Shown one piece after another: positions 20,758 through 52,113 of a DNA stretch of 64,000 bases. The notes under the pieces are model-generated. The model ran no database searches and was not told the DNA's origin. It was given only the letters and a program-made list of their open reading frames with translations. Made by a program: the position numbers and the translations under genes. The first letter of the stretch is position 1. Each line of letters begins with the position of its first letter. The DNA comes from an uncultured Acidobacteriota bacterium. GTDB taxonomy: Bacteria; Acidobacteriota; Thermoanaerobaculia; Multivoradales; UBA5704. The DNA is taken from contig CAVWLA010000003.1 in NCBI GenBank assembly GCA_963755825.1, forward strand, positions 1,088,940 to 1,152,939. The letters run 5' to 3'.

Positions 20758-22226
20758 CGACGAGGCCGCGAGCCGCGCTCCTCCTCTCCCTCCTGCTGGC
20801 GGCGGCGAGCGCCGCCGCCGGCGATCCGCCCGCCGACCACGGAATGTTCGGCGGCACCCCATCCCGCAACATGGCGTCGGACGAGAAGGGGCTCCCCACC
20901 CGCTTCGACCCGGCGACGGGCTTGAACATCAAGTGGGCGGTGGACCTCGGCTCGCAGAGCTACGGCGGCCCGGTGGTCGCCGGCGGCAAGGTCTTCGTGG
21001 GCACCAACAACGAGGGGCACAAGAACCCCAAGATCGTCGGCGATCGCGGCGTCATCATGGCCTTCGACGCCGCCGACGGCCGCTTCCTCTGGCAGGCCAC
21101 CCACGACAAGCTGAGCGCCGGCAAGGTCAACGACTGGCCGCTGCAGGGCATCTGCTCGACGCCGGCGATCGAGGGCGACCGCCTCTACTACGTCTCCAAC
21201 CGCGACGAGCTGATCTGCGCCGACACCGAGGGCTTCCGCGACGGCAAGAACGACGGTCCCTTCACCGCCGAGACCGACGCCGGCGAGACCGGCGCCGACT
21301 TCATCTGGAAGCTCGACCTCATCAGCACCTTCCACGTCTATCCCCACAACCAGTCGGCGAGCAGCCCGCTGGTGATCGGCGACCTCGTCTACATCGTCAC
21401 CGGCAACGGCGTCGACGAGGGGCACATCAACGTCCCGTCGCCCCAGGCGCCGAGCTTCATCGCCGTCGACAAGGCGACCGGCAAGGTGGCATGGACGAGC
21501 GCGCTGCCCGGCGAGCACATCCTCCACGGCCAGTGGTCGAGCCCGTCGTACGGCGTCCTCGACGGCCGGCCGCAGGTGCTCTTCGGCGGCGGCGACGGCT
21601 GGCTCTACGCCCTCGAGCCGAAGACCGGCAAGCTGCTCTGGAAGTTCAACTGCAATCCCAAGGACGCCGTCTACACGATCGGTCCCGGCTCGACCAAAAA
21701 CAACATCATGGCGATGCCGGTCATCCTGGGCGACATGGTCTACATCGCGGTCGGCGAGGACCCCGAGCACGGCGAGGGGATCGGCCACCTCTGGGCGCTG
21801 CGCCCGCGCGGCCTCGGCGACCTCACCGACAAGGCGGTGGTCTGGCATCGCGACGGCGAGGCGTTCCATCGCAGCCTGTCGACGGTCGCCGTCGCCGACG
21901 GCCTGCTCTTCACCGCCGACTTCTCCGGCTATGTCTACTGCCTCGACGCCGCCACCGGCCAGCTCTATTGGATCTACAACTCCTTCGGCGCCATCTGGGG
22001 CTCGCCGATGGTCGCCGACGGCAAGGTCTACATCGGCAACGAGGACGGCGACGTCGCCGTGCTGCGCGCGGCGCGCAAGCTCGAGGTGCTCCACAAAGTC
22101 AACATGGGGAGCGCCGTCTACAGCACCGTGGTGGCGAAGAAGGGCGTCCTCTACATCACCGCGCGGTCGAAGCTCTTCGCCATCGCCGAGGGGATCCCGG
22201 CGCACCCCGCGGCTCCGCCGCACTAG
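20754..22226 (+). CDS. Secreted PQQ-like beta-propeller repeat protein (BamB-like); paralog of the gene at 49929
   Basis: Signal peptide, GGKVFVGTNNEG, repeated blades (ADGRFLWQA, ATGKVAWTS, KTGKLLWKF, ATGQLYWIY). ATGA overlap with the upstream gene. Confidence 0.8.
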   Translation: MTTRPRAALLLSLLLAAASAAAGDPPADHGMFGGTPSRNMASDEKGLPTRFDPATGLNIKWAVDLGSQSYGGPVVAGGKVFVGTNNEGHKNPKIVGDRGVIMAFDAADGRFLWQATHDKLSAGKVNDWPLQGICSTPAIEGDRLYYVSNRDELICADTEGFRDGKNDGPFTAETDAGETGADFIWKLDLISTFHVYPHNQSASSPLVIGDLVYIVTGNGVDEGHINVPSPQAPSFIAVDKATGKVAWTSALPGEHILHGQWSSPSYGVLDGRPQVLFGGGDGWLYALEPKTGKLLWKFNCNPKDAVYTIGPGSTKNNIMAMPVILGDMVYIAVGEDPEHGEGIGHLWALRPRGLGDLTDKAVVWHRDGEAFHRSLSTVAVADGLLFTADFSGYVYCLDAATGQLYWIYNSFGAIWGSPMVADGKVYIGNEDGDVAVLRAARKLEVLHKVNMGSAVYSTVVAKKGVLYITARSKLFAIAEGIPAHPAAPPH

Positions 22227-22257
22227 CGGCCTGCACCGGATCGATCCGCGGAGCACC

Positions 22258-23406
22258 TTGGCCGACGCGCGCTTTGAGCCCGAGGGCAGCTGGCGGTCGG
22301 AGCTCGGCGGCATCGAGATCGTCTTCGGCGCCGGCGCCGTCGATCGCCTCGGCGCTCTGGCGCGAGAGGTCGGCGGCCGTCGCGTCCTCCTGGTGACCGA
22401 TCCCGGCCTCCGCGCCGCCGGCCATGCCGACCGCGCCGCCGCGGCGATCGCCGCCCACGATTTCGAGGTTTCGATCTTCGACCGGGTGGGCGAGAACCCG
22501 ACCACCGACGAGGTCGACGATGGGCGCGCCGCCGCCGCCGCGCTGCGGCCCGATCTCCTCGTCGCGCTCGGCGGCGGCAGCGCCATGGACTGCGCCAAGG
22601 GGATCAATCTCCTGCTCACCAACGGCGGCCGCATGGCGGACTACCGCGGCCTCGGCCGCGCGGCGAAGCCGCTGCTGCCGGCGATCGGCGTGCCGACCAC
22701 CGCCGGCACCGGCAGCGAGGCGCAGTCGTTCGCCCTCATCTCCGACGCCACGACGCACGAGAAGATGGCCTGCGGCGACCGCCAGGCACGCTTTCGGCTG
22801 GTCGTCCTCGACCCCGAGCTGGCGGCCTCCGCGCCGCCTCGCGTGCGCGCCGCCGCCGGGCTCGACGCGCTCTCGCACGCCGTCGAGAGCCACGTCTGCC
22901 GGCGCGCCAATCCGATCTCCCGCCTGCTCTCGCGCCACGCCTGGCGGCTCCTCGCCGACAACCTGGAGGCGACCTGGCGCGACCCTGCCGCGGCCGATCT
23001 CGAAGCGCTCGGCGCCGCGCTCCTCGGCGCCCACCTCGCCGGTGCCGCGGTCGAGCTCTCGATGCTCGGCGCCGCGCACGCCGGCGCCAACCCGCTCACC
23101 GCGCGTTACGGCATCGCGCACGGCATCGCGGTAGCCCTGCTCTTGCCTCATGTGGTACGTTTCAACGGCTCTTTTCACGAGGCGCTCTACATGGATCTCG
23201 CGGGTCAGTCAGCACCGGACATCGCACACCGGATCGAGCAGCTTCGAGCCTCGGCAGGCCTCCCCGAACGACTCCGCGACGTCGCTGTAGCAAGCGCTGC
23301 GCTGGCTGAAATGGCCGGCGACGCGGCGCGCCAGTGGACCGCATCCTTCAATCCGCGGCCGGTCTCGCCGGCCGATCTGTTACAGATTTATGAGCAAGCT
23401 TTTTAG
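22258..23406 (+). CDS. Iron-containing (group III) alcohol dehydrogenase family protein
   Basis: Fe-ADH GGGSxxD motif LVALGGGSAMDCAKG and His-rich metal site (LDALSHAVESH ... HGIAHGIAVALL). TTG start inferred (382 aa); there is no in-frame ATG upstream of the motif. Confidence 0.75.
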   Translation: MADARFEPEGSWRSELGGIEIVFGAGAVDRLGALAREVGGRRVLLVTDPGLRAAGHADRAAAAIAAHDFEVSIFDRVGENPTTDEVDDGRAAAAALRPDLLVALGGGSAMDCAKGINLLLTNGGRMADYRGLGRAAKPLLPAIGVPTTAGTGSEAQSFALISDATTHEKMACGDRQARFRLVVLDPELAASAPPRVRAAAGLDALSHAVESHVCRRANPISRLLSRHAWRLLADNLEATWRDPAAADLEALGAALLGAHLAGAAVELSMLGAAHAGANPLTARYGIAHGIAVALLLPHVVRFNGSFHEALYMDLAGQSAPDIAHRIEQLRASAGLPERLRDVAVASAALAEMAGDAARQWTASFNPRPVSPADLLQIYEQAF

Positions 23407-23507
23407 ACGCTCATGCGCCGGGATCCCTTGCCGTGTATCGCTTTCGCCGAGGCCGGCGGCTGGCCCGCCGCCAGTCGACGCCGGCGCTCCGAGAACGGAG
23501 TGGATGT

Positions 23508-24846
23508 ATGACTGAGCCGTCCCTCCAGCCCGCCAACCTGCCGCCGCCGATCGAGCCCGCCACCGTCGGCAGCCTGTTCGTCGCCAACTATCCGCCCTTC
23601 TCGTTCTGGGATTCGGCGGCGCTGCCGGAGATCCATGCGGCGCTCGCCAGCGCCGCCCGCCCGGATGTGCCTCTGGGCCTATACCTTCATATTCCATTCT
23701 GTCGCAAGCGCTGCAAGTTCTGCTACTTCCGGGTCTTCACCGAGATGGACGCGGCGCGCATCGAACCGTTATCTCGACGCCGTCGTGCGCGAGGTCGAGG
23801 CCTACGCCGCGCTGCCGGCGACCGGCGCGCGGCCGCTCCGCTTCGTCTACTTCGGCGGCGGCACGCCGTCGCTGCTCTCCGTCCACCAGCTCAACGGCCT
23901 CTTCAACCGCCTGCGCCGGGTGATGCCGTGGGACGGCGCCGAGGAGATCACCTTCGAGTGCGAGCCCGGCACCCTGACCGAGCCGAAGGTCAAGGCGATC
24001 CGCGCCATGGGCATCACCAGGCTCTCGCTCGGGGTGGAGAACTTCAACGACGCCATCCTCAAGGAGAACGGCCGCGCCCATCTCTCGGCCGAGATCTACC
24101 GCGTCATGCCATGGATCCAGGCGGCCGGCTTCGACCAGCTCAACATCGACCTCATCGCGGGGATGGTCGGCGAGACCTGGGAGACCTGGAAGGAGAGCGT
24201 GCAGCGGGCGATCGACCTGGGGCCGGACAGCGTCACCATCTACCAGCTCGAGCTCCCCTACAACACGGTCTTCTCGCAGAGCCTGCTCAAGGACGCCGCG
24301 GCGCTGCCGGTCGCCGACTGGGAGACCAAGCGCGCCTGGCACCAGCACGCCTTCGAGCAGCTCGCCGGCGCCGGCTACGCGATGTCGAGCGCCTACACCA
24401 TGGTGCGCAAGGACAGGCCCTGCCGCTTCGTCTACCGCGACTCGGTCTGGCACGGCTGCGACCTGCTGGGCGTCGGGCTGTCGTCGTTCTCGCACGTCAA
24501 CGGCACCCACTTCCAGAACGTCGCGTCGTGGAACGGCTACCTCGACGAGGTGGAGGCCGGGCGGCTGCCGCTCGACCGCGGCTGCCTGCCGAGCGTCTAC
24601 GAGCGGATGACGCGGGAGATGATCCTGCAGCTCAAGATGGGCCGCCTCGACGCCGCCTACTTCCGCTCCAAGTTCGGCGTCGACGTGCTCGCCGACTTCG
24701 CGCCCGCCTGGGAGCGCCTCGAGCGCGAGGGGATGCTGGAGATGCGCGGCGCCGGCGCCGAGCTCACCCGCACCGGGCTGCTGCGCGTCGACATGCTTCT
24801 CCCCGAGTTCTACGACGAGCGCTATCGCAACGCGCGCTACACCTGA
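23508..24846 (+). pseudogene. HemN/HemW-like radical SAM enzyme (oxygen-independent coproporphyrinogen-III oxidase family) interrupted by a 1-nt frameshift near 23764
   Basis: The N-terminus sits in one frame: LYLHIPFCRKRCKFCYF (CX3CX2C) ...EMDAARIE up to about 23765. The rest sits in a second frame: NRYLDAVVREVE..., FVYFGGGTPSLLS. Both halves are HemN-like, and the switch lies within 23763-23766. Confidence 0.7.
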
Positions 24847-24868
24847 TCGCCGGCCGGGAACCGAAGCG

Positions 24869-26167
24869 GTGTCGCCTGCGTCCAGTCTCCGATCCCCGGC
24901 GCCGCGGCGTTCGCCGAGGTGGTACCGGAGCGCCCTCGCGACGCTCCTCGCCGCCGGGACGCTCTCCGCGGCGCTCGCCCGCGCCGCCGACTGGCCGCAG
25001 TTCCGCGGCCCGCGGCGCGATGGCATCTCGAGCGAGACGCCGCTCCTCAAGAGCTGGCCGGAGAGCGGACCGCGGGTGCTCTGGAAGGTGCCGCTCGGCG
25101 AGGGCTTCTCCCACCTGACCGTCGTCGGCGACCGCCTCTACACCCTCTACGGGAGCGGCGGCGACGAGCTGCTCGCCGGCTTCGACGCCGCCACCGGCCG
25201 CCGCCTGTGGGCGACGCGGCTCGACGCCAAGCTCGACAACGATCAGGGCAACGGTCCGCGCGCCACCCCCACCTACGACGGCGGCCTGCTCTTCGCGCTC
25301 GGCGCCAAGGGCCGCCTGCTGGCGGCCGACGCCGCCACCGGCAGGACGGTCTGGCAGCACGACCTGGCGCGCGAGTTCGAGGCGCAGAGCCCGACCTGGG
25401 GCATCTCCAGCTCGCCGCTCGTCGAGGAGAAGCTGCTGCTCGTCGCCGTCGGCGGCACTCACGGCCGCTCGCTGATGGCCTTCGACAAGCGGGACGGCCG
25501 CGTCGCCTGGGCGGCGCAGGACGACCCGGCGGGCTACGCCGCCCCCATCGCCTTCACCGCCGCCAACCACCGGCAGGCCGTCTTCCTCACCGCCAAGTCG
25601 CTCCTCGCGGTGGCGCCCGGCGACGGCCGGCTGCTCTGGCGGACCCCCTGGGAAACCTCGCTCGACGCCAACGCCGCGACGCCGATCTTCCTCGCCCCCG
25701 ACCGCGTCTTCGTCTCCTCGGGATTCGACACCGGCGCCGCGGTCTTCCGGCTGCGCAGCGATGCCGCGGGCGGCGTCGCCCTCGAGACGGTGTGGAAGAG
25801 CCGCGTGCTGAAGAACCAGTTCAGCTCGTCGGTCCTCGACGGCGACTTCCTCTACGGCTTCGACAACGGCACCCTGAAGTGCGTCGACGCCCGCACCGGC
25901 GCCGAGAGGTGGAAGCAGCGCGGGCTGGGGATCGGCTCGCTGATCCTCGCCGACGGCGTCCTGGTGATCCTCTCCGACAGCGGCCGCCTGGTGCTCGCCG
26001 ACGTCACCCCCGAGAGCTACGTCGAGCGCGCCAGCTTCCAGGCGATGAGCGGGCGCTGCTGGACGGCGCCGAGCCTCGCCGACGGCGTCCTCTACCTGCG
26101 CAACGAGAGCATCATGCTGGCGCTCTCGCTGCGCCCTTCTCCCAAGGGAGATCCCAAGGGTGCTTGA
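24869..26167 (+). CDS. Secreted PQQ-like beta-propeller repeat protein (BamB-like); paralog of the gene at 47244
   Basis: ADWPQFRGPRRDG N-terminus and blades (ATGRRLWATR, ATGRTVWQHD, RDGRVAWAAQ, GDGRLLWRTPW, RTGAERWKQR). Confidence 0.8.
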   Translation: MSPASSLRSPAPRRSPRWYRSALATLLAAGTLSAALARAADWPQFRGPRRDGISSETPLLKSWPESGPRVLWKVPLGEGFSHLTVVGDRLYTLYGSGGDELLAGFDAATGRRLWATRLDAKLDNDQGNGPRATPTYDGGLLFALGAKGRLLAADAATGRTVWQHDLAREFEAQSPTWGISSSPLVEEKLLLVAVGGTHGRSLMAFDKRDGRVAWAAQDDPAGYAAPIAFTAANHRQAVFLTAKSLLAVAPGDGRLLWRTPWETSLDANAATPIFLAPDRVFVSSGFDTGAAVFRLRSDAAGGVALETVWKSRVLKNQFSSSVLDGDFLYGFDNGTLKCVDARTGAERWKQRGLGIGSLILADGVLVILSDSGRLVLADVTPESYVERASFQAMSGRCWTAPSLADGVLYLRNESIMLALSLRPSPKGDPKGA

Positions 26168-28316
26168 ACGCCGTGTCATCGCCGCCGTCGCCGTGCTTCT
26201 GCTCTGCCTGGGCCTGCCGGCAGCCGCCCAGACGCCGCCTGCCGCGGCGCCGGCACCGCCCGCCGACGAGAAGCCTCCGCTGACGCGCACCCACGAGACC
26301 CTCGACGTCGAAGGCGCGCCGCTCTTCGTTCCCGAGGTCAACACCGTGGCGACCAAGCTGCCGCTCTCGACCCTGAAGACGCCGGCGAGCGTCAGCGTCG
26401 TCACCGCGCCGCTCATCGAGCGGCAGGACGACCGCGTGCTTGGCGATGCTCTCGCGAACGTCAGCGGCGTCAACCCGCAGACCGAGAGCGGCGTCGCCGA
26501 CTACTTCATCCTCCGCGGCTTCGACTCCGAGTCGAGCGGTCTCGTCCTCACCGACGGCGCCCCCGAGCCCGAGGTCACCTTCTACCAGCTCTACAATGTC
26601 GACCGCGTCGAGGTGCTGCGCGGACCGGCGAGCTTCCTCTACGGCGGCAACCCGCTCGCCGGCGCCGTCGACCTGGTGAGCAAGCAGCCCCTCCCCTACG
26701 ATTCGGTGGGGGCGAGCGTCTCGGCCGGCAGCTTCGGGACGAACGAGGGCAAGGCGGACGTCAACTGGAGCAGCCCGAACGACACCGTCGGCCTGCGCGT
26801 GAACGCGCTCTGGGAGACGACGGACGGCTATCGCGACGGCCGCGGCGGCAAGGTGCACGGCGCCAACCCCACACTGGTCTGGCGCCCCGACGGCGAGGAC
26901 ACGGTGACGGTCAGCGCCGAGCGTCTCGACAGCCACTTCAAACCGGATGCCGGCCTGCCCATCCTGCTCGACGGCCAGGTGGCGCCGGTGCCGCTCACCC
27001 GCTCGTACCAGTCGCCCTTCGACACCTCCGACCAGGCGATCGACCGGGCGACCGTCGACTGGCAGCGCAGGTCCGGCGACCTCACCCTCGAGAACAAGCT
27101 CTACTACCGCGGCCTCGACTGGCGCTCGGACGGCACTCTCCTCACCGGCGCCTTCCCCGACCAGACCGGTACCGTCCAGGTGTCGCGCGCGCTGACCCTT
27201 CTCGACGACCGCCAGAAGTTCTGGGGCGACCGCTTCGAGGCGATCTCCGAGCTCGCGACCGGCAGCGTCCACCACCGCCTGCAGACCGGCCTCGAGATCG
27301 CCGGCCGCGACGACGTCTTCACCCTCGACGTCGGCGCGCTGCCGTCGATCAGCCTGCTGGCGCCGGTCGAGACCGCCCAGCAGCCGGTCTTCCTCATCCC
27401 CGGGCAGTCCTCGGCCGGCGACTCGCGGACGCGGATCGTCGCCCCCTACGCGCTCGACCACCTCACCCTTTCGCCGCGCTTCGAGCTCCTCCTCGGCGCC
27501 CGCTTCGACCACTCCGACTACCGAGACCGCGTCTCCGACACCTCGCGCAGCGACTCCCAGCTGTCGCCGTTCGTCGGCGCCGTCTACTCGCTCGGGAAGA
27601 ACGTGTCGCTCTACGCCAACGCCGGCCGCGGCTTCGCCCCGCCGTCGACCCGCGTCGTCGGACCGCAGCGCGCCGAGACCGGCAGCCAGGCCGAGGTGGG
27701 CGCCAAGGGCGAATTCCTCGGCGGCCGCCTGCGCGCCCAGCTGGCGCTCTACGACCTCGACCGGCGCAACATCGCCATCCCCGACGCGAACGGCATCACG
27801 GCGCAGGTCGGCAGCCAGCGCTCGCGCGGCGTCGAGCTCGAGGTCACCGCCGAGCCCCTGCCCGGCCTCTTCGCCCTCCTCATTTACGCCTACGACGACG
27901 CCGTCCTCACCCGCTTCGACGAGAGCGTCCTCGTCGGCTTCTTCCCGCCGACCTTCGCCACCGTCGACCGCACGGGCAACGCGCCCCCGCTCGCCCCCGC
28001 CCACCTCGGCACCCTCTGGCTCAGCCACCCCTTGCCGCGCGGCTTCGAGATCGGCCTCGGCGCCCACTACGCCTCGCGCCAGTTCATCGCCGCCGACAAC
28101 GCCTTCGCCATCCCCAGCGCGCTGACGGCGGAGGCGGCCCTCTCCTACACGGCGCGGCGCTTCAAGCTGCACGTCAACGCCAAGAACCTGACCGACGTCC
28201 GTACCTACACCCGCGGCTTCGGCTCCAGCTCGGTCATCCCGGCGAGCGGCTTCGCCATCTACTCCGGGATCGACTTCCGCTGGGACGCCCCCGCTTCTCG
28301 CAGCGCTGGAAGGTAG
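26160..28316 (+). CDS. TonB-dependent outer-membrane receptor
   Basis: Signal peptide, then a plug domain (VSVVTAPLIERQDDRVLGDALANVSGV, VEVLRGPASFLYGGN), followed by a long beta-barrel with alternating hydrophobic pattern. 718 aa. Confidence 0.8.
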   Translation: MLERRVIAAVAVLLLCLGLPAAAQTPPAAAPAPPADEKPPLTRTHETLDVEGAPLFVPEVNTVATKLPLSTLKTPASVSVVTAPLIERQDDRVLGDALANVSGVNPQTESGVADYFILRGFDSESSGLVLTDGAPEPEVTFYQLYNVDRVEVLRGPASFLYGGNPLAGAVDLVSKQPLPYDSVGASVSAGSFGTNEGKADVNWSSPNDTVGLRVNALWETTDGYRDGRGGKVHGANPTLVWRPDGEDTVTVSAERLDSHFKPDAGLPILLDGQVAPVPLTRSYQSPFDTSDQAIDRATVDWQRRSGDLTLENKLYYRGLDWRSDGTLLTGAFPDQTGTVQVSRALTLLDDRQKFWGDRFEAISELATGSVHHRLQTGLEIAGRDDVFTLDVGALPSISLLAPVETAQQPVFLIPGQSSAGDSRTRIVAPYALDHLTLSPRFELLLGARFDHSDYRDRVSDTSRSDSQLSPFVGAVYSLGKNVSLYANAGRGFAPPSTRVVGPQRAETGSQAEVGAKGEFLGGRLRAQLALYDLDRRNIAIPDANGITAQVGSQRSRGVELEVTAEPLPGLFALLIYAYDDAVLTRFDESVLVGFFPPTFATVDRTGNAPPLAPAHLGTLWLSHPLPRGFEIGLGAHYASRQFIAADNAFAIPSALTAEAALSYTARRFKLHVNAKNLTDVRTYTRGFGSSSVIPASGFAIYSGIDFRWDAPASRSAGR

Positions 28317-28320
28317 AGCC

Positions 28321-29592
28321 ATGCAGACAGAGGACTACGACGTCATCGTCATGGGCGGCGGCCCGGCCGGAGCCACCGCCGCCACCCTGGTCGCCGCCGG
28401 CGGCGCCCGTGTCGCGTTGATCGAGCGGCTGCCGGAGACCGGCTTCAAGATTGGCGAGTCGCTGATGCCGGAGAGCTACGAGACGTTCCGGCGCCTCGGC
28501 GTGCTCGACCGCCTCGGCGCCAGCTCCTTCCCGCGCAAGCACAGCGTGCAGTTCTTCTCCCCCGGCGGCCGCGCCTCGGCGCCGTTCTACTTCCGCGAGA
28601 CCGACGACAGCGAGGCCGCCGTCACCTGGCAGGTCACACGGCAGGAGTTCGACCGCCTGCTGCTCGACAACGCCCGCGATCACGGCGTCGACGTGCGCCA
28701 GGGCGCCATGGTGCGCGACGTGCTGTTCGAGGGCGACCGCGCCGTCGGCCTGCTGGCCGAGCTGCCCGGGGAGGGGGTGCGCGAGCTGCGCTGCCGCGTC
28801 GTCGTCGACGCCACCGGCCAGCGGGCGATCATCGGCCGCCGCCTGGGCCTCCTGCGCGGCGATCCGCAGCTGCGCAAGGCGGCGATCTTCACCCACTTCA
28901 AGGGCGCCCTCCGCGACCCGGGGATCGACGAGGGGGCCACCCTGGTGATCCACACCGACCACCAGGACTCGTGGTTCTGGTACATCCCCCTCGCCAACGA
29001 CATCGTGAGCGTCGGCGTGGTGGGGGCGATCGACTACCTGGTCCAGGGCCGCGCGGCCAATCCGCAGCAGGTCTTCGAGGAGGAGGTGGCGCGCTGCACC
29101 GCCCTGCAGCCGCGGCTGGCGGGGGCGACGCAGGCGATGGAGTTCCGCGCTCTGCGCGACTTCTCCTATCGCGCCGCGCAGGCGGCCGGCGACGGCTGGG
29201 TGCTGGTCGGCGACGCCTACCAGTTCCTCGACCCGATCTACTCGTCGGGCGTGCTGATCGCCCTCAACTCGGGCGAGGCGGCGGCCGACTCGATCCTCGC
29301 GGCGCTCGCCGCCGGCGACTGCTCCGCCGCCCGGCTGCGCACCTTCGAGCCGCGTCTGGTGGCCGGGATCGACGCCATCCGCCGGCTGGTCTACGCCTTC
29401 TACGACCCCAGCTTCCGCTTTTCGAAGTTCCTCCGCCGCTTCCCGCAGTACCGGCTCGACGTCATCAGCATCCTCCGCGGCAGCGTCTTCGGCAAGGACT
29501 TCCGCGGCCTGCTGGCCGCTCTCGACGAGGCCGCCCCGGCGCCGGAGGACGTCTTCGCGGCGGATCGATTCGGCGGGGAAATGCCGGCTTGA
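28321..29592 (+). CDS. Flavin-dependent halogenase-like protein (FAD-binding GxGxxG plus WxWxIP motif)
   Basis: N-terminal DVIVMGGGPAGATAA FAD-binding motif. KIGESLMP contains a Lys candidate for the catalytic residue. DSWFWYIPL is the WxWxIP motif diagnostic of flavin-dependent halogenases versus monooxygenases. Confidence 0.7.
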   Translation: MQTEDYDVIVMGGGPAGATAATLVAAGGARVALIERLPETGFKIGESLMPESYETFRRLGVLDRLGASSFPRKHSVQFFSPGGRASAPFYFRETDDSEAAVTWQVTRQEFDRLLLDNARDHGVDVRQGAMVRDVLFEGDRAVGLLAELPGEGVRELRCRVVVDATGQRAIIGRRLGLLRGDPQLRKAAIFTHFKGALRDPGIDEGATLVIHTDHQDSWFWYIPLANDIVSVGVVGAIDYLVQGRAANPQQVFEEEVARCTALQPRLAGATQAMEFRALRDFSYRAAQAAGDGWVLVGDAYQFLDPIYSSGVLIALNSGEAAADSILAALAAGDCSAARLRTFEPRLVAGIDAIRRLVYAFYDPSFRFSKFLRRFPQYRLDVISILRGSVFGKDFRGLLAALDEAAPAPEDVFAADRFGGEMPA

Positions 29593-30899
29593 GGATCGCA
29601 TTCGTCTCGGCCGGCGCCGCCAACATGTACTGCGGCAGCTGTCTGAACGACAACACCCTGGTCGCCGCGCTGCAGCGCCTCGGCCACGACGCGGTGCTGC
29701 TGCCGACCTACACCCGCCTGCGCACCGACGAGCCCGACGTCTCCGAGAAGCGCGTCTTCTTCGGCGCCCTGAACGTCTACCTGAAACAGGTGGCGCCCTT
29801 CCTCCGCCGCGGCCCCGCCCTCCTCGAGTGGCTGCTCGACCGCCCGGCGCTGCTGGCGCTCGTCGCCCGCCTCGGCTCCTCGACCGACCCCGCGCAGCTC
29901 GGCGCCCTCACCCTCTCCGTCCTGCGCGGCGAGGAGGGGCACCAGGAGCGCGAGATCGAGAAGCTGGTCGCCTGGCTCCGCGACGCCTTCCGGCCCGACA
30001 TCGTGCACCTGACCAATTCCATGTTCGCCGGCTTCGCCCGCCGCCTGAAGCAGGCGCTCGGCGTCCCCGTCGTCTGCTCGCTGCAGGGCGAGGAGCTCTT
30101 CCTCGAGAGCCTGCCGGCGCCGGTGCGCGCCGAGACCCTCGCCGTCCTCGCCGAGCGGGTGCAGGACATCGACCTCTTCTTCGCCCCCAGCCGCGCCTAT
30201 GCCGACTTCATGGCCGCCTACCTCGGCGTCGAGCGGCGGCGGATCGCGGTCGTCCCCCTCGGCCTCCACCTCGACGGCTACGGCGAGCGGCGGACGGCGG
30301 ACGCCGCCGGAGAACCTCTCGTCATCGGCTACCTCGCCCGCATCGCGCCGGAGAAGGGTCTCCACCTCCTCGTCGAGGCCTTCGCCGCGGTGGCGAAGGC
30401 GCTCGGGCCCGGCGGCGTGCGGCTCGACATCGCGGGCTACCTGCCGCCGCTCCATCGCCGCTACCTGGCAGGGGTCCAACAGCGGATCGCGGAGCTGGGC
30501 TTGAGCGGCAGCGTCCGCTACCTCGGCGAGGTCAGCCGCGAGGAGAAGATCCGCTTCCTCGGCTCGCTCGACGTGCTCTCGGTGCCCACCGCCTTCCGCG
30601 AGCCGAAGGGGCGCTACGTGCTCGAGGCGCTGGCGGCCGGAACACCGGTGGTGGTGCCTCGGCACGGCTCGCTTCCCGAGCTGATCGAGGAGACCGGCGG
30701 CGGCCTGCTCTTCGAGCCGGGCTCGACCGACGACCTCGCGAGGACGCTCCTCGCGCTGCTCGGCAACCCACTGCTGCGGGAGCAGCTGCGGCGCGCCGGC
30801 CGCGAGGCGGTGGCGAGGAAATACAGCGATCGAGCCGCCGCGCTCGCCACCCTCGCCGGCTACGAAGCCTGCCTCGGGCGGGCGCGCCACGTGGCATGA
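29589..30899 (+). CDS. Glycosyltransferase family 4 (GT-B, retaining)
   Basis: EX7E region FREPKGRYVLEALAAGTPVV. TTG start overlaps the halogenase stop. 436 aa. Confidence 0.8.
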   Translation: MRIAFVSAGAANMYCGSCLNDNTLVAALQRLGHDAVLLPTYTRLRTDEPDVSEKRVFFGALNVYLKQVAPFLRRGPALLEWLLDRPALLALVARLGSSTDPAQLGALTLSVLRGEEGHQEREIEKLVAWLRDAFRPDIVHLTNSMFAGFARRLKQALGVPVVCSLQGEELFLESLPAPVRAETLAVLAERVQDIDLFFAPSRAYADFMAAYLGVERRRIAVVPLGLHLDGYGERRTADAAGEPLVIGYLARIAPEKGLHLLVEAFAAVAKALGPGGVRLDIAGYLPPLHRRYLAGVQQRIAELGLSGSVRYLGEVSREEKIRFLGSLDVLSVPTAFREPKGRYVLEALAAGTPVVVPRHGSLPELIEETGGGLLFEPGSTDDLARTLLALLGNPLLREQLRRAGREAVARKYSDRAAALATLAGYEACLGRARHVA

Positions 30900-31615
30900 G
30901 CGAGCCCGGCGACACCGAGCCCTCGCGCGGGGCGGCCGCCGCGAGCGGCCTCGTGGCGCGGGAGGTCACCAAGAGCTTCGCCTTCGGCGATCGGGAGATC
31001 GCGGTCCTCCGCGGCATTTCCCTGGCACTCGCGCCGGCCGAGTCGCTCGCCATCCTCGGTCCCTCCGGCTCGGGCAAGAGCACCCTCCTCCACATCCTGG
31101 GGACGCTCGAGCGCCCCACCTCCGGGCGGGTGTCGCTCGCCGGGCAGGACCTCGGCTCGCTGCGCGAGCCGGAGCTCGCCCGCTTCCGCAACCAGCGGAT
31201 CGGCCTCGTCTTCCAGGACCACCACCTGCTCCCCCAGCACTCGGTGCTCGAGAACGTGCTGCTGCCGACGCTCGCCTTCCATCGCGGCTGGCGCGAGGCT
31301 CGGCCGCGCGCCGTCGAGCTCCTCCAGCGGGTCGGCCTCGGCGATCGGCTGCATCACCGGCCGGCCGAGCTCTCGGGAGGCGAGCGGCAGCGGGCGGCGA
31401 TCGCCCGCGCCCTCCTCCACCGCCCCGCTCTCCTCCTCTGCGACGAGCCGACGGGCAGCCTCGACCACGCCGCCGCCGAGGCGGTGATCGACCTCCTGCA
31501 CGAGCTTCGCCGCGAGGAGGGCGCCATCCTCGTCGCCGCCACCCACAGCCTCGAGCTCGCCGCCCGCTTCGGGCGCCGTGCGACCCTGCGTGACGGGCTG
31601 TGCTTCGCAGCCTGA
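30896..31615 (+). CDS. ABC transporter ATP-binding protein (LolD/MacB-type)
   Basis: Walker A GPSGSGKST, signature LSGGERQR, Walker B LLLCDEPTGSLD, H-loop ATHS. ATGA overlap with the GT4 gene. Confidence 0.9.
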   Translation: MSEPGDTEPSRGAAAASGLVAREVTKSFAFGDREIAVLRGISLALAPAESLAILGPSGSGKSTLLHILGTLERPTSGRVSLAGQDLGSLREPELARFRNQRIGLVFQDHHLLPQHSVLENVLLPTLAFHRGWREARPRAVELLQRVGLGDRLHHRPAELSGGERQRAAIARALLHRPALLLCDEPTGSLDHAAAEAVIDLLHELRREEGAILVAATHSLELAARFGRRATLRDGLCFAA

Positions 31616-34600
31616 GGCATTTCTGGGCGCTCCATCTCGCCGTCGTCCTGGCGGCTGCCGTCGCTGGCACCGTCGTCACCGGCTCGCTGGTGGTCGGCGA
31701 CTCGGTGCACGGCAGCCTGCGCGCCCTCTTCCTCGACCGCCTCGGCGCCACCGAGTCGGCCGTGGTGGCGGCGCGTCCCTTCCGCGCCGCCCTCGCCGCG
31801 GAGGTGGCGCGCCACCTGCCGAAGAGCGCCACCGTCGCGCCGATCCTCCTGCTGCCGGGGAGCGCCGCGCGTGCCGCCGCCGGCCCGCCCGATGCCGCCC
31901 CGCCGGTGCGGGCGACGGTCGTCGGCTACGACGAGCGCTTCGCGGCCCTCTATCCAGCAGAGGCGCTCGGGAAGCGAGCCGCGGGCGATCGCGGTCCTGA
32001 ACCCGGACCCGCTGGCAAGCCGGAGATTCGCTTCCCGCCGGTCCTCATCAACCGGACGCTCGCCGGCGCCGTCGGCGCGGCGACCGGCGACGACCTCCTG
32101 CTCACTTTCGAGCAGCCGTCGACCATCCCGCGCGACGCCCTCCTCGGCCACAAAGACAGCGAGAGCGTCGTCGCCAGCGGCCGCTTCACCGTCGCCGCCA
32201 TCCTCCCCGACCGCGGCGCCGGCGGCTTTGGGCTGGCGATCGGCCAGGCGATCCCGGCCAACGTCTTCGTGCCTCTTGGCACCCTGCAGCGGCGGACCGG
32301 CCTCGCCGGCCAGGCCAACGTCCTCCTCGTCGCGGCGGGCGCCGGCCGGGGCGCCGTGCGGCAGGCCATCCGCCGGAGCGTCGACCTCGCCGATCTCGGC
32401 CTCGCCCTGCGGCCGGCGCCCGAGCCCGGCGCCGCCGCGCTCGTCCTCGACAGCCGCGACTTCTTCCTGCCGGCGGCGGCGGAGAGCGCCGCGGCGGCGG
32501 CCGCGGCGGCGCTCCACGCCCGCGCCGAGCGGGTCTTCACCTATCTGGCGACCGCGCTCCGGGCGCACGGGCGCCTGGCGCCGTACTCGATGGTCGCCGC
32601 GATCGACCCGCTGCCGCCGCTGCCCCCGCTGCCCATGCTGCCGACGCTGCCAGCCGCCGGCGGGCTGCGCACGGCCGCGGGCGCGCCTCTGCCTCCCCTC
32701 GCCGGCGGCGAGATCGTCCTCGACGCCTGGGCCGCCGAGGCGCTCCAAGCCGTCCCCGGCGACGCGGTCGAGATGCGCTGGCTCCTCGCCGAGCCGGCTT
32801 CCGCCGGCCAGCCGTCGGCGTCGGCCGGCGCGAGCTTCCGCCTGCGCGGCATCGCGGCGATGGACGGCCTCGCCGCCGACCGCACCCTGACCCCGGCCCT
32901 CCCCGGCATCGACGCGGCGCCCGACATCGCCTCCTGGTCGGCCCCCTTCCCCATCGACCTCCACCTCGTCGGCCCGCGGGACGAGGCCTACTGGCACCGC
33001 TACGGCGCCACCCCCAAGGCGTTCGTGCCGCTGTCGACCGGGCGCCGGCTGTGGAGCAGCCGCTTCGGCGACCTCACCTCGGTGCGCATCGCCTTCCCCT
33101 CGCCGGCGGCGGCGAGCGCTCTCGCCGAGCCGCTCCGCCGCGATCTCCTCGCCCGCCTGCCGCTCGCCCCCTTCGGCTTCGAGCCGCGGGAGATCCGCGC
33201 CGAGGGGCTCAGCGCCGCCGACGCGGGGACCGACTTCACCTCGCTCTTCCTCGGCTTCAGCTCGTTCCTCATCGCCGCCGCGGTCCTCTTGACCGGCCTG
33301 GTCTTCTCCCTCGGCCTCGAGCGGCGGCGGCGGGAGATCGGCCTCCTCCTCGCGCTCGGCTTCCCGCTCGCCCGCGTCCGCCGCCGCTTCCTCGCCGAGG
33401 GCGCGGCGCTCGCCGCGCTCGGCGCCCTCGCCGGCCTCGCCGGCGCCTGCGGCTTCGCGGCCCTCCAGATGCGCGGCCTCGGCCTCTGGTGGCGGCCGGC
33501 GGTGGGCACCCCCTACCTCCGCCTCGTCGTCCAGCCGGCGACCCTCGCCGCCGGCTTCCTCGCCAGCGTCGGGGTGGTGCTCGTCGCCATCGTCGCCGGC
33601 GTGCGGCGGGCCGGCAGGCTCCCGGCGACGGCGCTCCTCGCCGGTGCCACGGGCCGCGGCGGCCCGCTCGCCGGAGCCGGCCGCGGCAGCCGCGGTCGCC
33701 CCGGCCGCGGCCTCCTCCTCGCCTTCTGGGGCAGCGCCGCCACCGGCCTCGCCCTCGCCGGCTGGCTCGCCGCGATCCGCTCGACCGGCCGGCCGCAGCC
33801 GGGGCTCGCCTTCGGCCTCGGCGCCTGCCTCCTCGCCGCCGGCGCCAGCGGCTTCGCCGTAGCCTGCCGGCGGGCGGGCAACCGGGAGTCGGAGCGCGGC
33901 GGCCTCGCCGCTCTCGCCCTCCGCGACACCGCCGCCGCGCCGGGCCGCGGGGTGCTCTCGATCGGCCTCGTCGCCTGCGCCTGCTTCGCCCTGGTGATGG
34001 TCGCCGCCAACCGGCGCGAAGAGCGCCAGCGGCCGGACTGGGCCGGCTTCACTCTCCTCGCCGAGTCGCAGGTGCCGCTCTATCAGGACCTCGGCAGCCC
34101 CGCCGGCCGCGAGGCGCTGGGGATCCCGCCGCAGGCCGAGGCCCTGCTCGCGGCGAGCTCGATCGTCGGCCTGCGCGAGGTGGCGGGGGACGACGCCAGC
34201 TGCCTCAATCTCTACCTGCCGCGCCGGCCGCGCCTGCTGGGGCTGCCGCCGGCCCTCCTCGCCCGGCGGGACGTCGCCTTCGCCGGCGCGCTGGGACCGC
34301 CGCCCGGCTCCCTGACGCTACTTCTTGGCGATGAGCGTGACGGGGCGCTGCCGGCGGTCGGCGACGAGCAGTCGGTGCGCTGGATCCTCCACCACGGCCT
34401 CGGCGACGAGATCCCCCTGGACGGCGCCGCGGGGCGGCGCCTGCGCCTCGTCGGGCTCCTCGCCGGCAGCCCGCTCCAGGGGGCGCTGCTGGTCTCCGAG
34501 CGCAACCTCCTGCGCGCCTTCCCCGCCCTCGGCGGGCGCCGGGTGTTCCTCCTCCGCCCGCCGCGCGGGCGCGAGCGGGAGGTCTCCCGCATCCTCACCG

Positions 34601-35055
34601 CGGCGCTCGGCGACCTCGGCTTCGCGGTGACGCCGATCGCCGAGCGATTGGCGCTCTTCCACGACGTCGAGAGCACCTACCTCGCCATCTTCCAGGCGCT
34701 GGGGAGCCTCGGCCTCCTCCTCGGCACGCTCGGCCTCGGCATCGAGCTGGTGCGCAGCGCTGTCGCGCGGCGCGGCGAGCTCGCCATCCTCCGCGCCTTC
34801 GGCTTCGGCCGCCGGCGCCTGGCGGCGCTCCTGCTGCTCGAGAACGGCCTCCTGCTGGCGGCCGGATTGGCGCTCGGCACCGGCGCCGGCCTCCTCGCCG
34901 CGGCGCTCGGCGGCGGCGAGCCCGGACCGTTCCCCTGGGGGCCGCTCGCCGCCACCCTCGGCGGCATCTTCGCCTGCGGCCTGGCGGCCTGCGCCGCCGC
35001 CGTCTGGACCGCCGTCGGCGGCCCGCTCGCCGCCCTCCTCAAGGCCGAGGCGTGA
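31600..35055 (+). CDS. ABC transporter permease with two FtsX-like domains (fused LolC/E- or MacB-like), 1151 aa
   Basis: N-terminal TM plus a large extracytoplasmic region, then a 3-4 TM FtsX bundle, twice. Arg-rich cytoplasmic loops. 16-nt overlap with the ATPase gene. Confidence 0.75.
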   Translation: MLRSLRHFWALHLAVVLAAAVAGTVVTGSLVVGDSVHGSLRALFLDRLGATESAVVAARPFRAALAAEVARHLPKSATVAPILLLPGSAARAAAGPPDAAPPVRATVVGYDERFAALYPAEALGKRAAGDRGPEPGPAGKPEIRFPPVLINRTLAGAVGAATGDDLLLTFEQPSTIPRDALLGHKDSESVVASGRFTVAAILPDRGAGGFGLAIGQAIPANVFVPLGTLQRRTGLAGQANVLLVAAGAGRGAVRQAIRRSVDLADLGLALRPAPEPGAAALVLDSRDFFLPAAAESAAAAAAAALHARAERVFTYLATALRAHGRLAPYSMVAAIDPLPPLPPLPMLPTLPAAGGLRTAAGAPLPPLAGGEIVLDAWAAEALQAVPGDAVEMRWLLAEPASAGQPSASAGASFRLRGIAAMDGLAADRTLTPALPGIDAAPDIASWSAPFPIDLHLVGPRDEAYWHRYGATPKAFVPLSTGRRLWSSRFGDLTSVRIAFPSPAAASALAEPLRRDLLARLPLAPFGFEPREIRAEGLSAADAGTDFTSLFLGFSSFLIAAAVLLTGLVFSLGLERRRREIGLLLALGFPLARVRRRFLAEGAALAALGALAGLAGACGFAALQMRGLGLWWRPAVGTPYLRLVVQPATLAAGFLASVGVVLVAIVAGVRRAGRLPATALLAGATGRGGPLAGAGRGSRGRPGRGLLLAFWGSAATGLALAGWLAAIRSTGRPQPGLAFGLGACLLAAGASGFAVACRRAGNRESERGGLAALALRDTAAAPGRGVLSIGLVACACFALVMVAANRREERQRPDWAGFTLLAESQVPLYQDLGSPAGREALGIPPQAEALLAASSIVGLREVAGDDASCLNLYLPRRPRLLGLPPALLARRDVAFAGALGPPPGSLTLLLGDERDGALPAVGDEQSVRWILHHGLGDEIPLDGAAGRRLRLVGLLAGSPLQGALLVSERNLLRAFPALGGRRVFLLRPPRGREREVSRILTAALGDLGFAVTPIAERLALFHDVESTYLAIFQALGSLGLLLGTLGLGIELVRSAVARRGELAILRAFGFGRRRLAALLLLENGLLLAAGLALGTGAGLLAAALGGGEPGPFPWGPLAATLGGIFACGLAACAAAVWTAVGGPLAALLKAEA

Positions 35056-35198
35056 GGCGAAAATTGACATACAATCGCAACGTTCACCGTGCTCTGTAGG
35101 GTCCGATGCGCGAACCTCGGGAGGCAGGAATCTCCGCCGCGGGGAGACCGCTGTCTCGCGCATCCAACAGCTTTCCGACGAGCGAAAGGGGATTGGCC

Positions 35199-35747
35199 AT
35201 GAAGCGGATCTTGATCGGATCTCTGCTGTCGGCAGTCGCGTTGTTCCTGTGGGGGTTCGTGTACTGGAACGTGCTGCCGTTCCGCAACTCCATCTACCAG
35301 TCGGTGCCGACCGAGGCGAGCGTCCTGCCGCAGCTCTCGGCCGCCATCCCGCACAGCGGCGTCTACCTGCTCCCCAACGTGGCGAACACCCCCAACGAGG
35401 CGGAGCTCAACAAGCTCTACAGCGCCGGGCCGATCGCCGAGATCATCTTCCTCAAGCACGGCGCGGAGCCCTTCAGCCCGTACATGTTCGTCCACGGCTT
35501 CCTCCACATGTTCATCGCCGCGTTCCTCATGGGGATCCTCCTCTCGCTCGCCCTCCCCGCCCTCGCCACCTACATGGACCGCGTCAAGGCGGTGGTCATC
35601 GCCGGGCTCGCCGGCAGCTTCTTCGCGCACCTGGGCGACCCCATCTGGTTCCACCACCCGTGGAACATGCACATCCTCCATTTCGTCTACGACCTCACCT
35701 GCTGGATCCTGGTCGGCCTCATCCTCTCGAGGTTCGTACGGAACTGA
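35199..35747 (+). CDS. Small integral membrane protein, unknown function
   Basis: 182 aa with 4 predicted TM segments and RBS AAAGGGGATTGG upstream of the ATG. GC is lower than neighbours. Confidence 0.5.
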
Positions 35748-37168
35748 CGCACCCAACGGAGCCAGGCCCTGCCCGGGCGTTCGTCTCGGCGCTCGCGGCG
35801 CTCCTCCTCGTCGCCGGCGCCGCGGCCGCCGGCGGCGACAACTGGCCGTCATTCCGCGGCGCCGACGCCTCGGGCGTCGGCCAGGGTCCGGCGCCCACCA
35901 CCTGGAAGGTCGACAGCTCGCTCCACGTCAAATGGAAGGCGACGATCCCCGGGCTCGGCCATTCGAGCCCGGTGGTCTGGGGCGACCGCGTCTTCGTCAC
36001 CACCGCGATCACCAGCGCGAAGGAGGTCGAGTTCCTCCATGGCCTGACCGGCGAGCTGCATTCCGCCGACGACGTCTCGCCGCAGTCGTGGCGCGTCGAG
36101 TGCCTCGACAAGCGGACCGGCAAGGTGCTCTGGGAGAGAGTGCTCCATGAAGGGGTGCCGCGCAGCAAGCGCCACAAGCGCAACAGCTACGCGACGCCGA
36201 CGCCGGCGACCGACGGCCGACACCTCGTCGTCTCGCTGGGCTCCGAGGGGCTCTACGGGCTCGACCTCGACGGCAAGGTGCTGTGGACGCAGGACATCGG
36301 GACGATGAACGTCGGCTTCTACGCCGACACCAGCCTGCAGTGGGGGGTGGGGAGCTCGCCGATCCTCTACCGCAACCTGGTGATCGTGCAGGCCGACCTC
36401 GACCGCGGCTCGTTCCTCGCCGCCTACGACGTCGAGACCGGCAGGCAGGTGTGGAAGGTCGCCCGCGACGAGCACCAGTCGTGGAGCACGCCGACGGTCT
36501 ACGAGGGCGCGCCGCGCGACGAGCTGATCACCCTCGCGCCGCTCCACGCCCGCGGCTACGACCCCAGGACCGGCAGGGAGCTCTGGAGCCTGGGCTGGAA
36601 CATGGACATCATCCAGTCGACGCCGGTGGTCGCCGGCGGCCTCATCTACTTCACCAGCGGCAAGGGCCCGCGGCAGCCGATCGTCGCGCTGAAGCCGGGG
36701 GCGAGCGACGACATCACCCAGCAGCCCGACAAGCCCGCCGACCCGCACATCGTGTGGAGCAAGGACCGCTGGGGGCCGATCACCACCAGCCCGATCGTCT
36801 ACGGCGACTACCTCTACGCCCTCACCGACCAGGGCGTGCTGCGCTGCTTCGACGCCAAGACCGGCGAGCTGCTCTACACCCAGCGCATCCCCGACGAGTT
36901 CCTCGCCTCGCCGGTGGCGGCGGACGGCAAGCTCTTCCTGACCTCGGAGAACGGCGACGTCTACGTCGTCCGTGCCGGTCCCAAGTACGAGCAGCTGGCG
37001 ATGAACCCGATGGGCGAGACCTGCCTGCCGACGCCGGCCATCTCGGACGGCATCCTCATCATCCGCACCCAGCACTTCCTCTACGGCATCGAAGAGCCCC
37101 CCGCGGCTCCGGTACCGCCGGCGGCTTCGGCAGCCGCCGCAGCTCCCGTCCAGCCGTCCAGCCGATAG
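35660..37168 (+). CDS. Secreted PQQ-like beta-propeller repeat protein (BamB-like). Start is uncertain (GTG 35660 or CTG 35744); there is no ATG/GTG/TTG near the signal peptide.
   Basis: Signal-like [28 protein letters not shown], blades ([49 protein letters not shown]). Either start overlaps the upstream membrane-protein gene. Confidence 0.65.
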
Positions 37169-38953: not shown

Positions 38954-39038
38954 CGATTCATCGCGGTGAGCACTCCGCCCCCCGAGCTCCTCCCCGGAAT
39001 CCCGATCGAGATCGCCGGCCGGCGGCCCGAGTCGGGCC

Positions 39039-42094: not shown

Positions 42095-42106
42095 CTCCGG
42101 CGCGCC

Positions 42107-52078: not shown

Positions 52079-52113
52079 GCCGTTCGGCCAGGCGCGCGAA
52101 AGCTTGCCGGCCC

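Follow-up and report, generated by a model that had tools for sequence, protein, structure and literature searches.

The window analysed here is a stretch of 64,000 nucleotides, taken at its full length, from the genome of an uncultured Acidobacteriota bacterium. At 28321-29592 it carries a gene for a putative flavin-dependent halogenase (FDH), which lies inside a co-directional operon of 12 genes extending from 18514 to 37168. Comparisons with other genomes indicate that FDH belongs to an operon of its own, which recurs in no fewer than five bacterial phyla, and that the copy in the window is a reduced version of this widespread and uncharacterised halogenase operon. Its genes are the following:

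18514-20757, + strand: PQQa, first of two secreted PQQ_2 beta-propellers opening the operon; signal peptide
20754-22226, + strand: PQQb, second of these propellers; signal peptide
22228-23406, + strand: iron-containing (group III) alcohol dehydrogenase (Fe-ADH); Pfam Fe-ADH, best NCBIfam match ErcA, below cutoff
23508-24846, + strand: HemN-like (class C) radical SAM protein (rSAM); 1-nt frameshift at about 23761-23770
24869-26167, + strand: PQQc, periplasmic PQQ_2/BamB-like beta-propeller; signal peptide
26160-28316, + strand: TonB-dependent receptor (TBDR) of the siderophore-receptor subfamily; signal peptide; Pfam Plug and TonB_dep_Rec_b-barrel
28321-29592, + strand: FDH, 423 amino acids (aa), ATG start, TGA stop, cytoplasmic
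29589-30899, + strand: GT4 glycosyltransferase; TTG start
30896-31615, + strand: ATP-binding cassette (ABC) ATPase of the LolD/YbbA/MacB/DevA type; NCBIfam LolD 250.6 bits, below the cutoff of 307.75
31600-35055, + strand: giant permease, 1121-1151 aa; Pfam FtsX twice; presumably forms an exporter with the ABC ATPase
35199/35241-35747, + strand: small membrane protein, not homologous to the conserved 'small173' of other loci (see below)
35972-37168, + strand: fourth PQQ_2 propeller, closing the co-directional run

The DNA of the window has a G+C content of about 72%, and real genes were told from the numerous spurious open reading frames by codon-position GC analysis. FDH had a G+C content at third codon positions (GC3) of 0.96, as in real genes of this DNA, and the operon genes other than that of rSAM were full length with GC3 values of 0.94-0.97. 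The gene order was confirmed in an independent assembly by a Logan contig that starts just downstream of the rSAM frameshift. Between the TAG of the TBDR gene and the ATG of FDH there are 4 nt, FDH and the GT4 gene overlap in TTGA, and the GT4 and ABC genes overlap in ATGA. This short gap and these overlaps show that FDH is coupled in translation to the genes on either side, those of the TBDR and GT4. An earlier note on this DNA, made from the sequence alone, had placed a TonB receptor before the halogenase and a GT4 gene with a Lol-like ABC transporter after it; the coordinates and the Pfam and NCBIfam matches agree with this, the TBDR scoring 234.5 bits on NCBIfam TIGR01783 (cutoff 223.5). 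Signal peptides were predicted for all propellers and the TBDR, and none for FDH, GT4, Fe-ADH or rSAM. The double-FtsX permease is a single polypeptide, which reaches up to 1275 aa in orthologues. It matched no NCBIfam family and gave a marginal PDB match (E 0.0026), and appears to be an undescribed type of exporter. Neither riboswitches nor tRNAs were found in the 64 kb.

A GxGxxG dinucleotide-binding motif near the N-terminus, the WxWxIP motif, a catalytic lysine and the Fx.Px.Sx.G motif lining the tunnel have been put forward as criteria for halogenases (PMC8407142). All of them could be read from the translation of FDH: GGGPAG at aa 12-17, which fits GxGxxG, WFWYIP at aa 218-223, FLDPIYSSG at aa 302-310 and Lys73 within the sequence PRKHS. 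Lys73 aligned with the lysine of the (R/K)K motif in FasV, PltA and Mpy16, which is the position of the catalytic lysine (K73 of PltA, K79 of PrnA). In 20 orthologues of 58-71% identity GGGPxG, K73, WFWxIP and FxDPIYSxG were invariant, including W218, F219, W220, I222 and P223 in the one motif and F302, D304, P305, I306, Y307, S308 and G310 in the other, and the motifs were kept even in divergent FDHs which were merely 44-48% identical. The Pfam family Trp_halogenase (PF04820) matched with 94 bits (cutoff 21).

In a phmmer search of the PDB the top matches were all FDHs, namely FasV (8zop, 9e-64), PltA (3e-57), Mpy16 (2e-54) and 3nix (1e-53), followed by ChlB4, CndH, Bmp2 and CmlS, so that the halogenases ranged from 1e-43 to 1e-64, values well outside what chance would give. 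A digeranylgeranyl-phospholipid reductase (3oz2) followed at 6e-14 and aromatic hydroxylases at 1e-7 or worse. A four-way alignment, in which all motifs were aligned, gave identities of 36% to FasV, 32% to PltA and 33% to Mpy16. The AlphaFold2 model of FDH, built from an alignment of 20 orthologues, had a pLDDT of 87 and a pTM of 0.88. When it was compared with the PDB by Foldseek, ranks 1-30 were all halogenases with TM values of 0.79-0.87 (0.83 for FasV, the leading match, and 0.87 for PltA), and the first reductase, again 3oz2, appeared at rank 45. The NCBIfam scores of FDH for CmlS (173 versus 900), QhpG (see below) and a geranylgeranyl reductase family (135.5 versus 158.8) were all below cutoff.

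The earlier note had recognised a halogenase by the combination of GxGxxG and WFWYIP, and this identification was borne out by the motifs, PF04820, the PDB sequence matches and Foldseek. It had named two observations that would speak against it. One, the absence of the catalytic lysine from an alignment, was not seen. The other, clustering with geranylgeranyl reductases or UbiH-type monooxygenases, can be rejected in view of their far weaker scores, the sub-cutoff NCBIfam match and the Foldseek rank; in both phmmer and Foldseek FDH grouped with the halogenases. Nor does it look like a tryptophan halogenase of the PrnA/RebH type. Those enzymes, of about 520-530 aa, are marked by a catalytic Glu (E346 in PrnA) and a C-terminal module that binds Trp, whereas FDH is 423 aa long and none of them was among its best PDB matches. 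The sole indole-alkaloid FDH that was matched (5wg* entries) aligned over aa 279-325 alone. Variant B (carrier-protein-dependent) FDHs, namely PltA, Mpy16, Bmp2, ChlB4 and CndH, were among the top matches in sequence and structure, and a C-terminal PxYRxD..LxGxV segment is common to FDH, PltA and Mpy16. A co-encoded carrier protein, the other mark of variant B, was not found, there being no PP-binding domain in the operon or the orthologous loci. By every sequence and fold criterion tested the predicted protein is confirmed as a genuine FDH, for which halogenating activity may be assumed. It is an additional member of the PltA/Mpy16/Bmp2/FasV-type clade and, as a halogenase, an ordinary one.

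Relatives of FDH were encoded by 562 stretches in GTDB species-representative genomes. The best 80 of these were 51-73% identical and came from Thermoanaerobaculia, further Acidobacteriota (Holophagales and Polarisedimenticolia), Latescibacterota, KSB1, Gemmatimonadota, 'Multivoradales' and Poribacteria, while relatives of 58-74% identity in NCBI/ENA were mostly annotated as Thermoanaerobaculia. Most relatives stem from metagenome-assembled genomes (MAGs) of soil and sediment. A repeated gene order was first evident around three FDH orthologues and was then extended to 55 FDH loci of at least 19 kb, against which every gene of the window was compared by tblastn; flanks were taken as 10 kb on either side of the anchor gene. 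The conserved order is Fe-ADH, rSAM, PQQ propeller, TBDR, FDH, GT4, LolD-like ABC ATPase and FtsX permease, and it recurred in Acidobacteriota, 'Multivoradales', Latescibacterota, KSB1 and Gemmatimonadota as well as in some Poribacteria. In the cluster of 10-15 genes common to these phyla FDH is among the best-conserved. The PQQc propeller was present in 40 of the 55 loci, rSAM in 35, GT4 in 34, the ABC ATPase in 32, the FtsX permease in 30, Fe-ADH in 29 and the TBDR in 28. Nearly all of these neighbours agreed in strand and order, with median identities of 42-61% (61% for the ABC ATPase, 56% for Fe-ADH and 54% for GT4). GT4, ABC ATPase and FtsX permease followed FDH in about 30 of the loci across phyla. 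Propellers of the PQQa/PQQb type preceded the cluster in the loci which we designate L015, L018, L031, L043, L066, L084, L085 and L090-L097.

Many of the other loci contained further genes. An EhpF-like adenylase was found in 22 of 53 loci with a median identity of 75%, matching the PDB structure of EhpF (3l2k) at 3.5e-49, and in fuller clusters it was directly followed by a protein of the aldehyde dehydrogenase family (Aldedh). A small DUF3311 protein and an SSF symporter were located between FDH and GT4 in L001-L003 and about 25 further loci, even in minimal ones. The 'small173' protein of other loci is a small multi-pass membrane protein without a Pfam match. In a more divergent variant, of the bog/peat type, the order was outer membrane barrel, rSAM, FDH and PaaK-like aryl-CoA ligase; some of these loci also had a 4HBT thioesterase, and a PQQ propeller was encoded close by. 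The PaaK-like gene was located immediately upstream of FDH in 25 genome loci, with the 4HBT thioesterase gene a few kb downstream, and it was also present in 30 loci anchored on rSAM. The most constant partner of FDH was rSAM: of the metagenome loci anchored on rSAM that had sufficient downstream DNA (n=29), 23 contained FDH, often adjacent to rSAM. In PDB searches the rSAM orthologue matched HemN (1olt, 2e-35) and the class C methyltransferase NocN (8e-32). Since the loci anchored on rSAM and on FDH agree, HemN-like rSAM, FDH and an aryl-acid-activating enzyme may be regarded as the recurring core. In one poribacterial locus (L029, 6815-11278) FDH was situated directly downstream of a gene for a secretin of 1037 aa and near two PhyH-family dioxygenase genes.

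What might such an operon make? The family of the enzyme, its motifs and fold, the structure of the operon, its synteny across phyla and the predicted compartments have been shown above; halogenating activity, the class of substrate, the order of steps and the fate of the product are inferred in what follows. We think it reasonably probable that this FDH of the PltA/Mpy16/Bmp2/FasV clade halogenates an activated intermediate derived from an aryl acid, which is then glycosylated and exported, and that it does so through its own operon. At FDH, hypohalous acid would be formed from O2, halide and FADH2, the latter delivered by an unlinked reductase. The wall formed by WFWYIP would keep the substrate off the flavin, and an electron-rich carbon would receive the electrophilic halogen from Lys73. 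The substrate might be a derivative of an aromatic or heteroaromatic acid, probably a thioester or adenylate, activated by the PaaK-like ligase or the EhpF-like adenylase. As FDH resembles PltA and Mpy16, which act on thioesters, and a carrier protein is absent, a CoA thioester would fit. The rSAM might modify the intermediate by C-methylation or by a decarboxylation of the HemN type, and in the fuller clusters the EhpF/EhpG-like pair together with Fe-ADH could convert acid to aldehyde and then to alcohol. GT4 would glycosylate the product, and its export would fall to the LolD-like ATPase together with the double-FtsX permease. Outside the cytoplasm the secreted PQQ-type propellers and the siderophore-type TBDR might handle or recapture it.

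Some other assignments were considered for genes of the cluster and rejected. The SSF symporter is distantly SGLT-like in the PDB comparison, where its matches were SGLT and multivitamin transporters and no Na+/I- symporter (NIS), and so it was not taken as a halide importer. A LuxE/LuxC fatty-acid reductase, which would have led to a fatty-alcohol glycolipid, was replaced as an explanation of the adenylase/Aldedh pair because the adenylase matches EhpF. The 'small173' protein was discarded as a flavin reductase, being a multi-pass membrane protein without a Pfam match and absent from the window. Anaerobic haem degradation by a ChuW/HutW protein and a TonB receptor was dismissed since the TBDR is of the siderophore type, not the haem type, and FDH needs O2; rSAM scored equally on the HemN, STM4012 and ChuW models of NCBIfam, in each case below cutoff.

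Several observations weigh against the proposed pathway. No flavin reductase gene was found in the 64-kb window, the operon or the orthologous loci, which is why an unlinked reductase is proposed, and no carrier protein was found in the operon or the orthologous loci, the sole carrier of the window being the ACP at 5017-5286, discussed below. FDH was missing from 6 of the 29 loci anchored on rSAM, so halogenation would not be obligatory for the wider family of clusters, and the FDH orthologue of most Poribacteria, which is 53-55% identical, stands alone without the cluster. Because the closest characterised enzymes are only 32-36% identical, the substrate class is not readable from homology. 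Other points concern the copy in the window. Neither of the aryl-acid-activating enzymes, EhpF-like or PaaK-like, was detected in the window by tblastn (E of at least 0.29), and no AMP-binding gene was found in the 64 kb; Aldedh, the SSF symporter, the 4HBT thioesterase and 'small173' were likewise absent (E of at least 0.29). The rSAM gene is frameshifted at a site outside a homopolymer, the window reading 'atc g aac cgt tat ctc' where the orthologues have I-N-R-Y-L, and its CxxxCxxC motif (HIPFCRKRCKFCYF) is in the reading frame used upstream of the shift. Moreover, one propeller gene (PQQf) is displaced by 25 kb to the other strand, beside a paralogue of PQQc:

47244-48539, - strand: PQQe, displaced PQQc paralogue
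48572-49750, - strand: PQQf, displaced orthologue of the propeller normally found between Fe-ADH and rSAM
49929-51335, + strand: PQQg, likewise a displaced component of the cluster

Because the activating enzymes are absent, rSAM is frameshifted and a propeller is displaced, the pathway may differ or be impaired in this organism. One might go further and regard the operon of this genome as a decaying remnant, in which FDH is intact in a broken pathway that yields no product. The frameshift, the loss of the EhpF-like, Aldedh, PaaK-like, 4HBT and SSF genes from the window and the position of PQQf would all be explained in this way. We nevertheless consider it improbable. In another Thermoanaerobaculia MAG (L015) the gene set is reduced in the same way although rSAM is intact, which suggests that the reduced architecture is a natural variant. 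The full length and the GC3 values of the remaining operon genes also argue against decay, and the missing genes may be located elsewhere on the contig of 3.08 Mb. The frameshift itself represents either pseudogenisation or an assembly error. In all, seven PQQ_2/BamB-like propellers were encoded in the 64 kb, each with a signal peptide, and several of their positions are conserved in the FDH clusters of other phyla. PQQf scored 285 bits on an ACSF4-type propeller model.

The earlier note had further connected the halogenase with a type-II lipid operon 17 kb upstream, and this unit does exist:

from 5017, + strand: acyl carrier protein (ACP, 5017-5286), ketosynthase (KS), chain-length-factor-like protein (CLF), FabA-type dehydratase (DH), ketoreductase (KR), second ketosynthase (KS2) and methyltransferase
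to 18135, - strand: LolA-like protein, MMPL protein and two DHOR di-haem proteins

The methyltransferase gene ends at 11103, 17.2 kb before FDH. The KS unit as a whole (to 18135) abuts the FDH operon (from 18514) with nothing unrelated in between, the starts of DHOR2 at 18135 and PQQa at 18514 being divergent. The supposition that genes of one pathway were dispersed instead of contiguous did not hold, since what one sees are two separately conserved modules that abut. It might still be thought that FDH acts on an aryl polyene or lipid tethered to the ACP of this unit, giving a halogenated polyene or glycolipid. The modules are immediate neighbours, and the relatives of FDH listed above as carrier-protein-dependent (PltA, Mpy16, Bmp2, ChlB4 and CndH) use tethered substrates. 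Furthermore the unit resembles Ape systems in its ApeP/ApeI-like DH, LolA-like and MMPL proteins, and L161, a KS-anchored locus from another genome, has a halogenase gene near its KS unit.

In the loci compared, however, the two modules do not travel together. Not one of the 55 FDH loci had a gene of the KS unit within 10 kb, including L084, L085 and L090-L097, in which the upstream edge of the operon can be seen with other genes beside it. The spacing of 17 kb was approached indirectly in relatives, by a comparison of shared contigs and by KS-anchored loci. There were about 40 orthologues of KS2 with at least 55% identity (103 relatives at E<=1e-30), compared with 4552 relatives of FDH at E<=1e-20; KS2 and FDH orthologues shared no contig except that of the window itself, and their phyletic spreads were disjoint. 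L161 and a second KS-anchored locus from another genome, L160, contained the KS unit with LolA-like and MMPL proteins and, in L160, DHOR, and no gene of the FDH operon. As the DH of both loci matches ApeP-like/ApeI-like proteins, the unit can be called aryl-polyene-like. The L161 halogenase is PltM-like, shares 25% identity with FDH of the window, has WMYVLP in place of WxWxIP and is not an orthologue, so that some relatives of the KS unit may carry a different halogenase of their own. Finally, FDH is coupled in translation to the TBDR and GT4 genes and to no gene of the KS unit. We therefore consider an action of FDH on the products of the KS unit very improbable; the FDH operon and the KS unit appear to be independent modules that merely abut here, and the KS unit itself would be a rare conserved module, much rarer than the FDH operon. 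From the idea of a halogenated polyene or glycolipid one part can be retained: a glycosylated and exported product is plausible in view of GT4, the ABC ATPase and the FtsX permease, which follow FDH in about 30 of 55 loci. The partnership with KS genes is not supported.

Some further observations concern the surroundings of KS genes. Besides the halogenase, described there as PltM/CtcP-like, the region adjoining the KS unit of L161 (17381-21284) encodes an asparagine-synthase-like protein and a weak radical SAM match. More distant relatives of KS2 (43-45%) occur in Micromonospora and Saccharopolyspora. Just upstream of the KS unit of the window, 600-4512 on the - strand encodes an FG-GAP/ASPIC(UnbV)-domain protein, a DUF1702 protein (338 bits) and a DUF6073 protein. 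Proteins of the UnbV and DUF1702 types are otherwise tied to enediyne polyketide synthase (PKS) cassettes, and their genes look odd next to a type-II KS cluster.

There remains the view that the protein is no halogenase but a flavin monooxygenase, either a hydroxylase of small aromatic compounds or a QhpG/LodB-like protein modifier which perhaps makes a cofactor for the propellers. The rSAM, propellers and ABC exporter of the FDH operon loosely recall the maturation operons of quinohemoprotein amine dehydrogenases, and NCBIfam gave sub-threshold scores for QhpG (141 bits, cutoff 240) and LodB/GoxB. This view is nonetheless scarcely credible, because Lys73, WFWYIP and Fx.Px.Sx.G do not vary between phyla and WxWxIP is thought to prevent monooxygenation (PMC8407142), because no QhpG or LodB structure appeared among the PDB matches at E<=1e-3 next to the strong halogenase matches, and because the propellers are secreted and FDH is cytoplasmic.

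Returning to the aryl-acid pathway, cluster genes are 50-75% identical between phyla, which is unusual for secondary metabolism. It could be that the pathway is a cross-phylum, vertically well-conserved one whose product is an aryl compound, halogenated and glycosylated, that serves a physiological, housekeeping-like purpose at the cell envelope and is not an antibiotic. The compound might, for example, be a secreted metallophore recaptured by the TonB system, or a small-molecule ligand or cofactor for the many secreted 'PQQ-like' propellers that organisms of these uncultivated phyla encode alongside. We put this forward tentatively and consider it doubtful; if true, it would represent a new class of halogenated metabolites with a housekeeping-like function.

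Downstream of the operon, 37196-44548 encodes two PMT_2/ArnT-like glycosyltransferases flanking a sulfatase, and a MacB-type permease. Further on, 51332-58074 encodes a GT2 protein, a methyltransferase, a sugar 4,6-dehydratase, a DegT aminotransferase, a UDP-GlcNAc 2-epimerase, an ArnA-like formyltransferase and a PIG-L deacetylase, which together resemble an Arn-like amino-sugar pathway; both stretches consist of envelope-modification genes.

We are aware of no halogenated natural product from Thermoanaerobaculia, nor from the majority of the phyla in which the operon occurs. Judged by the 562 GTDB species-representative relatives, one class of product may be widespread in soils, sediments and sponges, and the cross-phylum conservation of the operon makes it a good lead. 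The compact core of HemN-like rSAM, FDH and aryl-CoA ligase would be a tractable target for heterologous expression. The result also serves as a corrective where this locus is mined or engineered: FDH and the adjoining polyene-type KS genes should not be treated as partners.

The cluster is without a characterised counterpart in the searchable literature, and a comparison with known systems must proceed part by part. The operon ATPase resembles LolD, YbbA, MacB and DevA, and the permease shares FtsX domains with the LolCDE, MacB and DevBCA exporters. The differences are the sub-cutoff LolD score given above, the fusion of two FtsX domains in one polypeptide of about 1120-1275 aa and the lack of a membrane-fusion protein, LolA or LolB in the FDH operon. 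Of the aryl-polyene halogenases of xanthomonadin and flexirubin clusters one is reminded by the adjoining Ape-like KS unit and by the match to 3nix, a protein of the flexirubin producer Cytophaga hutchinsonii. FDH, however, is not embedded in the KS unit, nor does it co-occur in the loci compared with the KS, ACP, LolA and MMPL genes of aryl polyene clusters.

EhpF and EhpG of the D-alanylgriseoluteic acid (phenazine) pathway are proposed to convert an aryl carboxylate to the aldehyde. The truncated adenylase and Aldedh of the orthologous clusters match ehpF-ehpG in sizes and order, although the FDH clusters lack phenazine core genes and the window does not contain the pair. The adjacency of these genes for an AMP-binding protein and an aldehyde dehydrogenase has been documented in phenazine clusters (PMC11278526).

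Among the halogenases FasV, the aromatic-polyketide halogenase of fasamycin, on which one review mention was found in the literature, is a compact FDH like that of the window and was its best match in the PDB by both sequence and Foldseek. FasV acts on a free phenolic polyketide. The alignment with FasV ends at residue 363, FasV has no PltA-like C-terminal segment, and it belongs to an actinomycete type-II PKS cluster, whereas the conserved context of FDH lacks a PKS. With PltA, Mpy16 and Bmp2 (5dbj, 5buk, 5bva), which halogenate pyrrolyl-S-carrier proteins, FDH shares the fold (TM 0.84-0.87), the four motifs, the aligned catalytic lysine and, in the case of PltA and Mpy16, the C-terminal segment; like them it would be a two-component FADH2 enzyme of about 410-450 aa. 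It differs in its low identity (32-33%) and in its context, the operon having no carrier protein, prolyl-adenylating enzyme or acyl-carrier-protein dehydrogenase. Instead, the partners of FDH are a HemN-like rSAM, an aryl-CoA ligase or EhpF-like adenylase, a TBDR, GT4 and the ABC/FtsX genes.

The closest parallel to the cluster as a whole is provided by the 'Halo_AMP' clusters of sponge symbionts (bioRxiv 10.64898/2026.08.03.742642), the only report on FDH combined with rSAM and phenylacetate-CoA ligase that was found in the searchable literature. These are defined by an FDH and a standalone AMP-binding enzyme, their products being left open. Their A-domains resemble phenylacetate-CoA ligases and their FDHs resemble Bmp2, genes for rSAM, PQQ-like proteins, TonB-dependent transporters, glycosyltransferases and thioesterases are frequent, and they occur in Acidobacteriota, Latescibacterota and Poribacteria. 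The relatives of FDH described here come mostly from soil and sediment MAGs and not from sponge symbionts, and the P450s in the focus cluster of that preprint are absent from the window operon. The copy in the window, having no AMP-binding gene, falls outside the definition by FDH and AMP-binding enzyme, whereas the orthologous loci with an EhpF-like or PaaK-like gene would fall within it. In gene content the architecture of the 'Halo_AMP' clusters matches the consensus of the FDH loci.

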